Shown here: positions 1,638-5,364 of the stretch, piece after piece | How the letters are laid out: every line of letters begins with the position of its first letter | Numbering within the stretch: position 1 is the stretch's first letter | From: Steroidobacteraceae bacterium | GTDB lineage: Bacteria > Pseudomonadota > Gammaproteobacteria > Steroidobacterales > Steroidobacteraceae | Reading direction: 5' to 3' | Length of the DNA: 54,891 bases | NCBI GenBank assembly: GCA_035566815.1 | Contig: DATMQL010000115.1 | Coordinates: 1-54,891, forward strand | The notes under the pieces: generated by a model | The model's database searches: none | What the model was told of the DNA's origin: nothing | What the model saw: only the letters and a program-made list of their open reading frames with translations | Program-made: the position numbers and the translations under genes

Positions 1638-4069
1638 GTACCGCGCCTCTGCAATTTCTGGTCAGCTCCCCGCGGGGGCTGTCGGACCTGCTGGCGCGCG
1701 AGTTGGTTGCGCTGGGCGCGACGGATGCGCGTGAGCGGTCGACGGGAGTCACGTTCTCGGCGGAACTGGAGGTCGCGTATCGGGCGTGCCTGTGGTCGCG
1801 CGTGGCGAATCGGGTATTTCTCGAGTTAGCGCGGTTTGATGCGGTCGACGCGGATGGGTTTTACACCGCTGTTCGCGAGATTGACTGGACCGAGCATCTC
1901 GGGCCGGAGGCCACGCTTGCGTGCGATTTCAGCGGGCAACATCCCGCGATCACGCATACACATTTCGGCGCGCTAAAGCTGAAGGACGCTATCGTCGACT
2001 CGGTGCGCGATTCACGCGCGTGGCGGCCGAGTGTGGAGCTCGAGCGGCCCAGTGTGCGCGTTCACGCGCATGCTCATGGGAATAGCTTTGTGGTGTCGTT
2101 GGACTTGTCTGGCGAGAGTCTGCACCGCCGGGGTTACCGGGGGGCCGCCGGAGAGGCGCCGCTGAAGGAGAATGTGGCGGCGGGCGTTTTGTTGCGGTCG
2201 GGTTGGGGGGATCTTGCGGCCGGCACTACGGAATTCCTCGATCCCATGTGTGGATCGGGGACGTTTGTGATCGAGGCGGCGCTGATTGCCTCCGATCGGG
2301 CGCCGGGGCTCGATCGGGAATACTTTGGGTTTCTGGGGTGGGCCGGGCACAACGTCGACGCTTGGGAGCGCTTGCTTGTTGAGGCGCGTGCGCGGGCGCG
2401 TGCCGGTATGGATGCTGCGGTTGCCCGGGGGCTCGAAGGGGCCATCCGCGGGCGGGATCGGGATTCGGGTGCGGTGCGGAACGCTCGTGGGAATGCTGAG
2501 CGGGCGGGGGTGCAGCGGCTGGTTAGGTTTGATGTTGGGGTGTTGGCGGATGCGGCGCCGATGGAGCGGGTGCGGGTGAAAGGCGCTTCGGCGGAGGACG
2601 CAGAGGGCGGTCTGTCGCTGCCGGCCGCGGGGGATCTGGCGCGGGCTACCGAGACCCGCCCGATGCGGTCGACCGAGGAGGCTGCGATTGAGCCGCCCAT
2701 GGCCGCGTCCCTGGCCCCTGCAGCGGCGGGCTTGCTTTGCACTAATCCCCCCTACGGGGTACGGCTCGACGATCGTGATACCGCGCGCGCGGTTCATCGC
2801 GAGTTAGGTGTCGTTCTTCGCGAGCGCTTCCAAGGTTGGAATGCCGCCGTGTTGACCGGCACGCCGGAGTTCGGTCTGGAGTTGGGCATCCGGGCCCACC
2901 GCACGCATACGGTGTGGAACGGCGCGATTGAATGCCGCTTGCTGCGCATGAAGGTAGACACCGGCAGCGCCCGCGAGCCTGGCCGGCTGGGTAAGGGCGA
3001 CACGAATCTACGTGACACTCCTGGCGCGCAGATGTTCGCGAATCGTCTCGCGAAGAATCTCAAGAAGCAGCAGGCTTGGGCGGACCGCAGCGGCGTGTCG
3101 TGTTATCGGCTGTATGACGCTGACATGCCGGAGTATGCGTTTGCTATCGATGTGTATCGGACGATTGGGGAGGCACAGGGCGAGCCGGCGAGCAATACGG
3201 CCGACGCTCGTGGGGTCGGCAGAGCGGGGTCGGTCGCAGGAGGCTCTCCGGGCGCGGGCGAATTGACCTGGCTGTACGTCCAGGAGTATGCCGCGCCGGC
3301 GGAAATCGAGCTCGAGTCTGTGCGTAAGCGCCGTGGGGAGGCTCTCTCCACACTTGCGGATGTCACCGGTGTTGCTCAAGAGCGCGTCCGCGTCCGAACA
3401 CGCCGCAAGAACAAACGAGGTGAGCAGTACAGCAAGGTGCAGGATCGCGATAACTATTACGTCGTGATGGAGGACGGTCTGAAGTTTCTCGTGAACTTCG
3501 ACGACTATCTCGACACGGGTCTGTTCCTCGATCACCGTACGACACGCGGGCGGCTTCGAGCCGCGGCCTCCGGAAAGCGATTCCTGAATCTGTTCGCCTA
3601 CACCTGTACGGCGACGGTCTACGCTGCCGCGGGCGGCGCCGTGTCGACGACGTCCGTTGATATGTCGAATACCTATCTCAATTGGGCTCAACGCAACTTT
3701 GAGCTGAACGGGCTCTCCCCGGATCGCAACGGGCTGGTGCAAGCCGATTGCCGGGTATGGCTGCAAGAGGCGAATCGGAGCCGCGAGCGGTACGACCTCA
3801 TCTTCATCGATCCTCCGACGTTCTCGAACTCGAAGCGTATGGAAGGGGTGTTCGACGTCGAGCGCGACCACCCGGAGTTCATCGACGGTTGTGTGCGCCT
3901 GCTGGCGCCGGGCGGCCTGATCGTGTTTTCGACGAATTCCCAACGGTTCCGGCTGGATGAGTCGCTGTCACAGCGTTACGACGTCCGTGACATCTCCGCC
4001 GGGACGTTACCTAAGGACTTCGAGCGTAACCCGCGCATTCACCGGTGTTTCGAAGTACGTGTAGGGTGA
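1634..4069 (+). CDS. rlmL: 23S rRNA m2G2445/m7G2069 bifunctional methyltransferase RlmL (RlmKL)
   Basis: ORF track 1703..4069 (TTG). The segment LQFLVSSPRGLSDLLARELVALGA, matching the E. coli RlmL N-terminus ([23 protein letters not shown]), lies upstream of 1703. That frame is open there but has no ATG/GTG/TTG, so I propose the CTG at 1634, which overlaps the puuC stop. NPPYG motif (LLCTNPPYG); C-terminal methylase module FLNLFAYTC...DLIFIDPPTFS. Confidence 0.85.
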   Translation: MSTAPLQFLVSSPRGLSDLLARELVALGATDARERSTGVTFSAELEVAYRACLWSRVANRVFLELARFDAVDADGFYTAVREIDWTEHLGPEATLACDFSGQHPAITHTHFGALKLKDAIVDSVRDSRAWRPSVELERPSVRVHAHAHGNSFVVSLDLSGESLHRRGYRGAAGEAPLKENVAAGVLLRSGWGDLAAGTTEFLDPMCGSGTFVIEAALIASDRAPGLDREYFGFLGWAGHNVDAWERLLVEARARARAGMDAAVARGLEGAIRGRDRDSGAVRNARGNAERAGVQRLVRFDVGVLADAAPMERVRVKGASAEDAEGGLSLPAAGDLARATETRPMRSTEEAAIEPPMAASLAPAAAGLLCTNPPYGVRLDDRDTARAVHRELGVVLRERFQGWNAAVLTGTPEFGLELGIRAHRTHTVWNGAIECRLLRMKVDTGSAREPGRLGKGDTNLRDTPGAQMFANRLAKNLKKQQAWADRSGVSCYRLYDADMPEYAFAIDVYRTIGEAQGEPASNTADARGVGRAGSVAGGSPGAGELTWLYVQEYAAPAEIELESVRKRRGEALSTLADVTGVAQERVRVRTRRKNKRGEQYSKVQDRDNYYVVMEDGLKFLVNFDDYLDTGLFLDHRTTRGRLRAAASGKRFLNLFAYTCTATVYAAAGGAVSTTSVDMSNTYLNWAQRNFELNGLSPDRNGLVQADCRVWLQEANRSRERYDLIFIDPPTFSNSKRMEGVFDVERDHPEFIDGCVRLLAPGGLIVFSTNSQRFRLDESLSQRYDVRDISAGTLPKDFERNPRIHRCFEVRVG

Positions 4070-4147
4070 TAGGCGTCACGCCCCCGGGCCTAAAAGGCGC
4101 CTCCGGCCCGCTTTACTTGCCGCCCGGCGTCAGGTAGCGTTAGGTCC

Positions 4148-4222
4148 ATGCTCAAGACCACGAAAACGCGCAAGATTATCAAGAAGCCCTGGGGTGGGGC
4201 CCTGGAGACCTTCGCGCGCTGA
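4148..4222 (+). CDS. candidate 24-codon leader peptide MLKTTKTRKIIKKPWGGALETFAR (Lys/Thr/Ile-rich) upstream of asd
   Basis: ATG at 4148, TGA at 4220-4222. Codons 3-13 are K T T K T R K I I K K. It is a local AT-rich patch in GC-rich intergenic DNA and is followed by the terminator at 4250..4288. The SD is weak (AGG only 3 nt upstream). Confidence 0.35.
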   Translation: MLKTTKTRKIIKKPWGGALETFAR

Positions 4223-4249
4223 TCGTACGTCGAGAAGCACCGAATCCAA

Positions 4250-4288
4250 GAGGCCCCGCCGGTAACCCCCGCGGGGCCTCTTCGTTTT
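4250..4288 (+). terminator. rho-independent terminator / attenuator hairpin upstream of asd
   Basis: GAGGCCCCGC (4250-4259), an 11-nt loop, GCGGGGCCTC (4271-4280), then TTCGTTTT. This gives a perfect 10-bp GC-rich stem plus a T-tract. Confidence 0.75.
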
Positions 4289-4332
4289 GGCGAATCACTA
4301 TCTTCAAGTCATGGGTTTTGGGGAGTCATAGC

Positions 4333-5364
4333 ATGCAATCTGGTCGTCCTTCCTCGTCGGCGCCCGTCGTGGCAGTCGTTGGCGCCACCGGCGCGGTCGG
4401 TGTCGAGTTAATGCAGTGCCTGGAGCAGCGGCGCTTCCCGCTGTCGAACTTGCGGCTGTTCGCGTCCGCGCGCTCCGCCGGTAAGACGCTTCCCTTCCGT
4501 GGCAAGCCGGTGACGGTGGAGGAGTTGACCGACGACAGCTTCAGCGGTGTCGACATCGCGTTGTTTTCTGCGGGTGGGAGTCAATCGAAGCGCTTCGCCC
4601 CGGCCGCCGTCCGCGCGGGCGCTGTGGTTGTCGACAACTCGTCCGCGTTTCGTATGGACCCCGGTGTGCCGCTCGTAGTGCCGGAGATCAACCCGGAAGC
4701 GGTGCGTGAGCACAAGGGCATCATCGCCAACCCCAATTGCTCGACCATTATTTCCATCACGCCGCTGTGGCCCATTCACAAGATCAACCGCATTCAGCGC
4801 ATGATCGTTGCCACGTACCAGGCTGCTTCCGGTGCCGGAGCCGCGGCGATGGAGGAGTTGCGCGAGTCGACGCGCGCCTACCTCGAAGGCCGCGAGTACA
4901 AGAACACCGTTCTGCCGCATCCGTACGCATTCAACCTCTTCAGCCACAACTCGAAGATCGATCCTTCGAACGGCTACAACGAGGAAGAAATCAAGGTGAT
5001 GCGCGAGACGCACAAGATCTACGGCGACTCGACTATCCGCGTGGCCGCCACCTGCGTTCGGGTTCCGGTACTGCGCGCTCACAGCATCGCCATCAACTTC
5101 GAGTGCGAGCGCCCCATCACCCCCGCGCAGGTGCGTGATGTCATGCAAACCGCGCCGGGTGTGAAGGTCGTGGACGATGTCGAGCGCAACTACTTCCCGA
5201 TGCCGAAGGACGCCTCCGGCCAGGATCCGATTCTCGTCGGCCGTATCCGCCAGGACGTCAGCGACCCCAGCGGCCGCTCCATCGCCTTGTTCGTCGCCGG
5301 CGACCAGCTTCTGAAGGGCGCGGCTTTGAATGCCGTGCAGATTGCGGAGTTGTTGCTGAAGTAG
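4333..5364 (+). CDS. asd: aspartate-semialdehyde dehydrogenase (short, about 343 aa type)
   Basis: ORF 4318..5364; ATG at 4333 with GGGGAG 8 nt upstream. Motifs VAVVGATGAVG (NADP fold), the active-site Cys in IANPNCSTI, and VRVPVLRAHS. Confidence 0.93.
   Translation: MQSGRPSSSAPVVAVVGATGAVGVELMQCLEQRRFPLSNLRLFASARSAGKTLPFRGKPVTVEELTDDSFSGVDIALFSAGGSQSKRFAPAAVRAGAVVVDNSSAFRMDPGVPLVVPEINPEAVREHKGIIANPNCSTIISITPLWPIHKINRIQRMIVATYQAASGAGAAAMEELRESTRAYLEGREYKNTVLPHPYAFNLFSHNSKIDPSNGYNEEEIKVMRETHKIYGDSTIRVAATCVRVPVLRAHSIAINFECERPITPAQVRDVMQTAPGVKVVDDVERNYFPMPKDASGQDPILVGRIRQDVSDPSGRSIALFVAGDQLLKGAALNAVQIAELLLK

Follow-up and report, generated by a model that had tools for sequence, protein, structure and literature searches.

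Introduction

The product of aspartate-semialdehyde dehydrogenase (Asd) is the common precursor of lysine (Lys), threonine (Thr), methionine (Met) and isoleucine (Ile), at a branch point that leads also to diaminopimelate, and in Escherichia coli the multivalent control of asd by these amino acids has long been known. In other bacteria, cis-acting RNAs such as the lysine riboswitch (L-box, RF00168) and the asd RNA motif (RF01732) are found upstream of aspartate-pathway genes, asd included, and the lysine (alpha-aminoadipate) cluster of Thermus thermophilus is reportedly controlled by leader-peptide attenuation at Lys codons. Here we describe the region upstream of asd in a contig of 54,891 nucleotides (nt) from a Steroidobacteraceae bacterium (Gammaproteobacteria; assembly GCA_035566815.1, contig DATMQL010000115.1), the whole of which is called the window below. 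Between a predicted promoter and asd, this region carries a 24-codon open reading frame (ORF) rich in Lys, Thr and Ile codons and an intrinsic terminator, and in all likelihood it regulates asd as a transcription attenuator of the trp/thr/his type, which depends on a ribosome translating a leader peptide. With somewhat lower confidence, the codon content leads us to propose Lys, Thr and Ile as the amino acids sensed.

The closest described layouts come from other hosts. In Sinorhizobium meliloti, the trpL leader peptide is translated from a leaderless messenger RNA (mRNA) starting at the AUG of the upstream ORF (uORF) (PMC10117765), which provides a proteobacterial precedent for a leaderless attenuator ORF. 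The same work describes SEP5 (MRPKGSSIAALNLPAHHAGPISHFSLARKTTAKTTTKTV), a translated uORF of 39 amino acids upstream of SM2011_c04410, which is preceded by a Shine-Dalgarno (SD) sequence, contains a cluster of six Thr and three Lys codons, ends in RKTTAKTTTKTV and lies in the 5' untranslated region (UTR) of an 'aspartate dehydrogenase' gene. Its authors suggested in one paragraph that SEP5 is a possible leader peptide, given the Thr/Lys pathway, and called it conserved only in Sinorhizobium; the paper reports no structures, terminator analysis or comparative evidence (PMC10117765). In mycobacteria, leaderless polycysteine uORFs are described as reporting through their codon content the supply of cysteine (Cys) to downstream biosynthetic genes (bioRxiv 10.1101/834739). 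The attenuator treated here was first proposed in a prediction made from the letters of the window without database searches (below, the original prediction), which was not aware of such a layout for asd. Within the searchable literature this stands, save for the brief S. meliloti suggestion (PMC10117765), and no published asd attenuator was found in our full-text literature searches.

Results

A leader ORF with biased codons and an intrinsic terminator precede asd

The gene downstream of the putative attenuator was identified by two NCBIfam equivalog models, NF011456 (442 bits, cut-off 223) and TIGR01296 asd_B (411 bits, cut-off 324), together with the Pfam domains Semialdhyde_dh and Semialdhyde_dhC. 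It is not argC, nor is the protein of the asd_gamma type (TIGR01745, 83 bits versus a cut-off of 403). The features on which the analysis rests are the following, "elements" being the window copy and its homologs in related loci.

4112 to 4117, + strand: -35 box TTTACT of the asd/leader promoter (TTTAC[AT] in 51 of 54 elements)
4135 to 4140, + strand: -10 box TAGCGT, of the TAnnnT type, separated by 17 nt from the -35 box and by 7 nt from the leader ATG
4148 to 4222, + strand: leader ORF of 24 codons, MLKTTKTRKIIKKPWGGALETFAR, with an ATG start and its stop at 4220-4222, probably translated, from a predicted leaderless mRNA
4154 to 4186, + strand: codons 3-13 of the leader, the putative regulatory cluster, made up of five Lys, three Thr, two Ile and one Arg codon
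4320 to 4325, + strand: SD sequence of asd, GGGGAG, 7 nt before the ATG at 4333 (relatives have GGAG at the same place)
4333 to 5364, + strand: asd, aspartate-semialdehyde dehydrogenase of the asd_B type, the gene presumed to be regulated, assigned by NCBIfam equivalogs and Pfam

Codons 3-13 of the leader read K T T K T R K I I K K, with Lys, Thr or Ile at 10 of the 11 positions. Given the background in the window's long ORFs (Lys 3.2%, Thr 5.8% and Ile 5.1%, together 14.1%), the probability of at least 10 such codons in 11 is 3 x 10-8. These 33 nt have 42% G+C, and 100-nt windows over 4050-4349 have a G+C fraction of 0.58-0.64. Downstream lies the terminator, with a GC core that spans 4250-4259/4271-4280; a gap of 44 nt separates the end of its T-run (4288) from the asd ATG at 4333. 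What the original prediction had read from the sequence, namely the ORF and its codons, the hairpin, the T-run, the 44-nt gap and the promoter hexamers, was correct throughout.

The element recurs in front of asd in related loci

One genome per GTDB species was scanned with Asd, which gave 80 loci with Asd identities of 73-99%, mostly from Steroidobacteraceae or unclassified gammaproteobacterial metagenome-assembled genomes (MAGs). In tblastn searches with the 24-amino-acid peptide, a match was found about 85-160 nt upstream of asd in dozens of these loci. A covariance model (CM), R1, was then built from 42 aligned elements (alignment A1); it produced full-length matches on the + strand in the window and in 53 of the 79 related loci (54 elements), each immediately 5' of asd, and no full-length match at any other place in 590 kb. 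The order in the carriers is promoter, ATG mini-ORF, terminator, SD and asd. The original prediction had proposed conservation of the mini-ORF and terminator upstream of asd as a check, and the 53 carriers bear it out. Moreover, when JGI metagenomes were scanned for exact matches to a degenerate DNA pattern of the core, K-[T/K]-R-[K/T]-I-T-x-K-[K/T]-P, 10 soil contigs with the same layout were retrieved; asd is the next gene in nine, and the tenth ends inside the element. The recurrence upstream of asd in relatives, together with the probability given above, excludes chance as the origin of the biased codon run.

Three carriers (L063, L067 and L069) are labelled alphaproteobacterial MAGs or unclassified Proteobacteria, and among the loci scanned the element was absent from the asd loci of Phycisphaerae, Terriglobia, Bryobacteraceae and most Rhodospirillaceae. 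Asd proteins 73-80% identical to that of the window are present in MAGs labelled Phycisphaerae, Terriglobia and Alphaproteobacteria, a distribution that suggests horizontal transfer or mis-binned contigs.

The leader promoter is the asd promoter and predicts a leaderless leader

Conservation starts abruptly at the -35 box (CTTTACA; TTTACT in the window), and the DNA upstream of it is unrelated between loci. The spacer is 17 nt long in 49 of the 51 elements with this promoter, and the -10 box appears as TAGGGT, TAGCGT or TAGCTT. In all 51 the -10 box ends 6-10 nt before the leader ATG, and no SD sequence was found before the leader ORF in the elements examined. Because of this short distance and the lack of an SD sequence, the leader mRNA is predicted to have either no 5' UTR, making it leaderless, or one no longer than about 3 nt. 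The original prediction had listed a poor SD sequence and a speculative leaderless mRNA among its weaknesses. The SD sequence is indeed poor, but since no relative has one and the promoter ends 6-10 nt before the ATG, the weakness disappears; likewise, the leaderless layout it described appears to be a conserved feature of the elements (51 of 54 have the promoter) rather than a speculative one. A simple consensus scan for promoters and terminators (at least 4/6 matches per hexamer, loop of 3-8 nt) flagged neither here, its criteria being too strict for a TAnnnT -10 box and a bulged stem, and it was not used as evidence in either direction.

These comparisons also bear on the origin of the asd transcript. 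The CM match stops about 10 nt beyond the stem, and the asd ATG follows this end at a median distance of 22 nt (at most 35 nt in 43 of 54 elements); the GGAG of asd often follows directly after the U-tract, and in most loci its SD sequence lies within about 5-25 nt of it. The gap thus leaves, in most relatives, too little sequence for a second promoter. Moreover, in two relatives (L053 and L064) the last ~60 nt before asd contain CTTTACA-N17-TAGCGT directly ahead of the asd SD sequence, without ORF or hairpin, and in a third (L042) the last ~90 nt contain the promoter and then ~50 nt of leader in which there is no terminator. As relatives lacking the attenuator keep this promoter before asd, it is the asd promoter, and in the carriers transcription of asd must pass the terminator. 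The original prediction, which had deduced such read-through from the window, was therefore right on this point. Across these loci the attenuator seems to behave as a module that is gained or lost between a stable promoter and asd.

Other relatives retain the asd promoter and the terminator-like hairpin and have lost the leader ORF and the RNA regions 1 and 2 defined below: L032 (~2930-3000), L037 (~1400-1490), L062 (2864-2983), L075 (2858-2981) and L079 (2883-2983). The U-tract is degraded in L062 and L075 (AUAGUCUUC and GUCGUCUGUG, respectively) and intact in L032 and L037. To judge from this arrangement, such hairpin-only loci should show constitutive termination near the 5' end, or the hairpin should stabilize the 5' end. 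The closest relatives of the window (L002, L003, L005 and L007) carry inserts of 130-210 nt between the attenuator terminator and asd, where the window has its 44-nt spacer. The insert of L002 (~2796-2995) holds two more terminator-like GGCCCCGCC...GCGGGG hairpins with T-rich tails, forming a tandem array.

Two other explanations of the hairpin were weighed against this distribution. The gene upstream, at 1703-4069 on the same strand, encodes an RlmKL-like ribosomal RNA (rRNA) methyltransferase and ends 180 nt before the hairpin, which could be its terminator, and the ORF could be a chance open frame, stop codons being rare in GC-rich DNA. This is effectively refuted by the conserved promoter that intervenes and at whose -35 box conservation begins, by the persistence of the element with asd where the upstream sequence differs, by the codon bias (P = 3 x 10-8) and by the covarying antiterminator described below, which has no role in a plain terminator. 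Alternatively, a complete promoter-ORF-terminator unit of ~140 nt might be an independent small gene, for a K/R-rich micro-protein or a small RNA (sRNA) with its own terminator, with asd depending on a promoter of its own or on leak-through that is not regulated; functions in trans are described for an attenuator RNA and its peptide, rnTrpL and peTrpL of S. meliloti (PMC7298713; PMC12612679). We regard this as very improbable indeed, given that in the loci and metagenome contigs scanned the unit is found solely in front of asd, that the asd SD sequence ~5-25 nt past the U-tract leaves no room for a promoter in most loci, that relatives devoid of the unit use the same promoter for asd, and that the Lys-Thr swaps and the frameshifted lineage presented in the next section argue against a conserved protein.

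The leader is conserved as codons in its first half and as RNA in its second

All but one of the 54 elements start the leader with ATG (the other with GTG), and 53 have a leader ORF of 23-27 codons (the other has 31). Indels within the ORF are multiples of three, apart from one lineage with a 1-nt deletion. In the core of the 54 distinct peptides, from the first Lys to the Pro, K accounts for 34%, T for 25%, I for 12% and M for 4%, so that K, T and I together reach 71% versus 14% in the background. Codons 2-5 are unconserved and not A-rich.

The best-aligned positions flank a conserved central CGC codon (n = 50). The codon before it is ACG in 30, AAG in 18 and AAA in two sequences; the codon after it is ACG in 24, AAG in 19, AAA in four, ACC in two and AGC in one. 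Lys or Thr thus occupies these positions in 99 of 100 cases, and the changes are AAG-ACG exchanges or synonymous only, despite AAG having eight non-stop single-base neighbours, of which just ACG and AAA are used. One codon further on, ATC or ATT was found in 37 of 50 sequences, Ile codons in the leader alternating between these two forms, and the codon that follows is Thr (33/50) or Ile (8/50). Lys accounts for the two codons preceding the Pro in 40 of 47 cases, or 42 of 47 if Thr is counted as well. In the largest clade an ATG often precedes the first Lys codon (18/50), giving M-K-T-R-K-I-T-L-K-K, a single Met codon that is weak evidence that Met may also be sensed.

The C-terminal half shows another kind of constraint. 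In L020 (2840-2989) and L049 (2851-2993), a 1-nt deletion (AAGAAG to AA-AAG) follows the Lys/Thr/Ile codons, which stay in frame; the C-terminal peptide is wholly changed, and all helices and the stop (within two codons) are retained. This indicates that the C-terminal half is conserved as RNA, not as protein. The recurrent motif P-x-x-G-A-L-x-D-L-A-R accordingly reflects RNA conservation and the N-terminal half codon conservation, a division that argues against a functional micro-protein and is what an attenuator predicts.

The order of Lys and Thr around the central Arg varies by clade (K-T-R-K, K-K-R-T or K-T-R-T). The switch in order accompanies C-terminal codon changes (LARA, CAR, RVR) and a 2-nt register shift of helix 1:2 (see below), and its site comprises columns 19-27 with 67-79 of alignment A1 (4166-4174 with 4210-4220 in the window). 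At this site, the codons chosen and the pairing of the RNA seem to evolve together.

These codon data are also the place to consider an attenuator that is coupled to translation without being specific for any amino acid. Such a device would respond to general translation capacity or ribosome availability, or to slowing of the ribosome by a positively charged, K/R-rich nascent peptide, and the Lys, Thr and Ile codons would be incidental to an A-rich, unstructured 5' coding region favouring leaderless initiation. The core is in fact A-rich and lies at the 5' end of a putatively leaderless mRNA, its codons are interspersed instead of forming runs, and AAG and ACG interconvert by a single base change. 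However, the restriction to ACG and AAA among the eight neighbours of AAG at the two best-aligned positions (99/100) is hard to reconcile with such an origin, as is the fact that the K/T/I(/M) set comprises exactly the products downstream of Asd. Furthermore, codons 2-5, the most important for leaderless initiation, are neither conserved nor A-rich. A sensor of this non-specific kind is therefore considered unlikely, and amino-acid-specific attenuation by the leader peptide is preferred.

Two mutually exclusive folds show compensatory changes

The leader RNA of the window can be divided into four regions in the manner of classical attenuators.

4166 to 4190, + strand: region 1, pairs with region 2 and overlaps the putative regulatory codons (cluster 4154-4186/4190)
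4193 to 4220, + strand: region 2, 5' strand of the antiterminator, pairs with region 1 or region 3
4240 to 4262, + strand: region 3, 3' strand of the antiterminator, includes the terminator 5' arm at 4248-4262
4268 to 4288, + strand: region 4, terminator 3' arm (4268-4282) plus the U-tract UUCGUUUU; hairpin of -28.1 kcal/mol

Three alternative helices connect them. In fold 1:2, the minimum free energy (MFE) structure of the 4148-4239 domain (-29.3 kcal/mol), 4166-4174 pairs with 4210-4220, 4179-4183 with 4202-4206 and 4186-4190 with 4196-4200. Fold 2:3 (-37.7 kcal/mol), which results when region 1 is masked and the transcript ends ahead of the 3' arm, pairs 4193-4206 with 4245-4260 and 4211-4216 with 4240-4244. 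The pairing of GGUGGGGCC (4193-4201) with GGCCCCGCC (4252-4260), which the original prediction had put forward as an antiterminator, is real and forms the core of the longer helix 4193-4206/4245-4260. Fold 3:4 is the intrinsic terminator, 4248-4262/4268-4282, which reaches -28.1 kcal/mol when folded alone and is followed by CGUUUUGG. When 4140-4295 was folded as a whole, a long hairpin across the ORF plus the terminator was obtained (-63.6 kcal/mol, z = -2.7).

Ribosome positions were modelled by masking a footprint of 28 nt. In transcripts that end ahead of the 3' arm, an A site at codon 6, 9 or 11 leaves the whole 5' arm of the terminator sequestered in 2:3. If the A site is instead on the stop codon, just the core of 2:3 can form, around a ribosome-filled loop (-20.9 kcal/mol in total), and the full-length RNA forms the terminator.

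Across the family, mean RNAduplex energies are -28, -38 and -23 kcal/mol for 1:2, 2:3 and 3:4, respectively. Relative to dinucleotide shuffles of region 2, the mean z is -3.0 for 1:2 and -2.9 for 2:3, being negative in 42 of 42 sequences. On alignment A1 the antiterminator has 84.4% of its cells paired (30-55% in slid controls), double-sided changes in 33 cells versus 14.1 +/- 3.6 after shuffling (0/500), and a covariation score of 0.135 versus 0.085 (0/500). The terminated fold, that is, helix 1:2, the tip hairpin and the terminator, has 82.9% of its cells paired (35-58% in slid controls), with double-sided changes at 12 pairs versus 6.5 +/- 1.2 shuffled (0/500) and a score of 0.130 versus 0.091 (0/500). 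These counts, which come from related sequences and from structures partly derived from them, lend support but do not amount to proof. For helix 1:2, a single consensus register was tried and fails, because GCGCGC repeats permit 2-nt shifts between clades; the pair counts of the terminated fold are thus conservative.

Individual pairs illustrate the pattern. In the antiterminator, alignment pair 70-111 is CG in 17 and UA in 15 sequences; in helix 1:2, pair 26-71 is AU in 20 and CG in 15; and in the terminator both sides change at seven pairs. Regions 2, 3 and 4 change together in L023 (GGGGUC / GACCCC / GGGGUC) and in L066 (GGGGCUUCC / GGAAGCCCC / GGGGCUUUC). Compensatory changes, the second comparative check proposed in the original prediction, were therefore found for both folds, that of the terminator with 1:2 and that of the antiterminator. 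Folds that exclude each other and yet each carry such changes are the signature of a switch.

Such a switch might also work without translation, as a riboswitch or protein-binding leader that chooses between the same terminator and antiterminator, with the ORF incidental. Both covarying folds would be expected of it, the conservation of the C-terminal "peptide" is really that of RNA, and the leader ORF has no SD sequence. On the other hand, the near-invariant ATG at the predicted 5' end, the frame-preserving indels, the synonymous variation at Ile and Lys codons, and a stop kept at a fixed distance before region 3 even after a frameshift all speak for a translated ORF. Neither a conserved unpaired pocket or junction typical of ligand binding nor a match to an Rfam family, lysine riboswitch included, was found, and we consider an untranslated switch very unlikely. 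Conservation, covariation and the alternative folds together support the reading of the leader as an attenuator that the original prediction had offered, and all of its proposed checks that are computational turned out favourably.

Proposed mechanism and the points that weigh against it

From the conserved parts, their order, the codon bias and the three alternative helices with their covariation, we infer a transcription start site, translation of the leader, a kinetic coupling and the identity of the amino acids sensed, which would work together as follows. Transcription would start at or within ~3 nt of the leader ATG, from TTTACT-N17-TAGCGT, and a ribosome would load on the 5'-terminal AUG and translate the 24-codon leader while RNA polymerase proceeds. 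If charged transfer RNAs (tRNAs) for Lys, Thr and Ile are plentiful, the ribosome would reach the stop at 4220-4222, cover region 2 in its 3' half together with the beginning of region 3, and block most of 2:3, the tip hairpin 4186-4190/4196-4200 closing behind it; the terminator, helix 3:4 plus the U-tract, would then form, and transcription would end before asd. If one of these amino acids is short, the ribosome would stall within 4154-4186 and keep region 1 single-stranded, so that region 2 (4193-4216) would pair with region 3 (4240-4260), sequester the 5' arm of the terminator and permit read-through into asd. Without translation, helices 1:2 and 3:4 would both form and transcription would terminate. 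The net effect would be that more Asd is made when Lys, Thr or Ile run short, which fits the position of Asd as the common step to Lys, Thr, Met and Ile.

Several observations weigh against this reading. At equilibrium, the full-length RNA of the window favours the terminator even with region 1 masked (ensemble -54.7 versus -40.7 kcal/mol), so the switch must be kinetic, as in classical attenuators; in L028, L054 and L073, unlike in the window, the antiterminator is the MFE structure with the masked footprint. Since the full-length window RNA does not flip, equilibrium folding with a masked footprint was dropped as a basis, and folding of truncated transcripts together with covariation was used. 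A second point is the ribosome geometry, which the original prediction had already called non-textbook: a ribosome at the stop codon does not physically cover 4193-4201. This objection holds in part, being mitigated by the antiterminator reaching as far as 4216 and by a local hairpin in which 4186-4190 ties up the segment 4196-4200 as long as no ribosome occupies the Lys codons. As regards initiation, the -10 box is weak, matching the E. coli consensus at 3/6 positions, and leaderless translation in the host lineage is a prediction. The regulatory codons are interspersed, two to five per amino acid, not in long runs, and helix 1:2 also includes the central Arg codon, which is conserved, and some of the Lys/Thr pattern, so that RNA and codon constraints are partly confounded. 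Finally, the homologs of the element all come from MAGs or metagenomes, six relatives have 84-207 nt between the end of the CM match and asd, and the window's own 44-nt gap between U-tract and asd might conceivably hold an unusual promoter, the absence of one being argued by homology.

Other hairpins and RNA families in the window

Of the terminator-like hairpins on the + strand of the window, that of the asd attenuator is the most stable; the - strand has a stronger one (-33.6 kcal/mol) near 725. No other leader-like mini-ORF with a biased codon run before a strong hairpin was found in the 54.9-kb window. At gathering score, no family of Rfam 15 matched anywhere across it, and at E<=10 none, the Thr, His, Leu, Trp and other leader families included, matched in 3900-4500 except for a sodF sRNA hit. 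With 19 bits against a gathering score of 46, the latter was rejected as a generic terminator match to the hairpin.

Discussion

The element appears to be a real, well-conserved family of leader-peptide attenuators for asd, undescribed as far as our literature searches found. It would place an attenuator of textbook type in front of asd in Steroidobacteraceae, a gammaproteobacterial family abundant in soil, and add a new family to the short list of amino-acid attenuators, for which alignment A1 could go into Rfam. Its useful features are the mixed set of Lys, Thr and Ile codons, the apparently leaderless leader ORF, and the natural hairpin-only and promoter-only variants, which are ready-made controls. 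For annotators, it is a reason to keep the 24-codon ORF.

A wider role can be imagined. A single leaderless leader might integrate the charging of tRNA-Lys, tRNA-Thr and tRNA-Ile (plus, through the Met codon of the largest clade, that of a fourth tRNA) at the enzyme common to four branches, as a multivalent sensor replacing the riboswitch or repressor control used elsewhere, and the terminated RNA of ~140 nt, the K/R-rich peptide or both might have targets in trans among the other genes of the aspartate pathway, like rnTrpL and peTrpL in S. meliloti. We put this forward as a speculative extension with a rather small chance of holding.

Compared with known cis-acting RNAs of the aspartate pathway, the element stands apart. 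The lysine riboswitch (RF00168) and the asd RNA motif (RF01732) are ligand-binding or non-coding and have no translated ORF, whereas the element has a leader ORF, and neither model matched it at any threshold tried. The lysine attenuator of Thermus, as reported, shares the Lys codons in its leader, and differs in phylum, pathway and target genes and in sensing only Lys; no homology is expected. With that precedent, sensing of Lys by attenuation is not new in itself.

Among leaderless leaders, S. meliloti trpL also combines a terminator/antiterminator attenuator in a proteobacterium with a leaderless uORF. It senses tryptophan (Trp) and controls trpE(G), and its terminated RNA and its peptide have proven functions in trans, which would be speculative for the element described here. 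The mycobacterial Cys uORFs, as described, are likewise leaderless short ORFs reporting amino acid supply, in Actinobacteria and for Cys. SEP5 of S. meliloti has its regulatory codons at the 3' end, an SD sequence and 39 codons, and shows no evident sequence similarity to the Steroidobacteraceae asd leader. The gene that follows it, SM2011_c04410, is presumed to be asd.

The E. coli thr attenuator (thrL; Thr_leader RF00506) is the nearest in principle. Both exemplify ribosome-mediated attenuation of an aspartate-family gene, putatively so in our case, with a short leader ORF rich in Thr and Ile codons, alternative 1:2, 2:3 and 3:4 helices, and, immediately ahead of the structural gene, an intrinsic terminator. 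The element has no homology in sequence or structure to RF00506, which did not match it even at E<=10. The thr leader, moreover, targets thrABC, is led by an SD sequence and has its codons in runs, whereas the element precedes asd in a Steroidobacteraceae host, is apparently leaderless, and has interspersed codons of which Lys is the most frequent. The mechanism itself is not new: by analogy, the asd leader would work like the thr, trp and his attenuators of E. coli.

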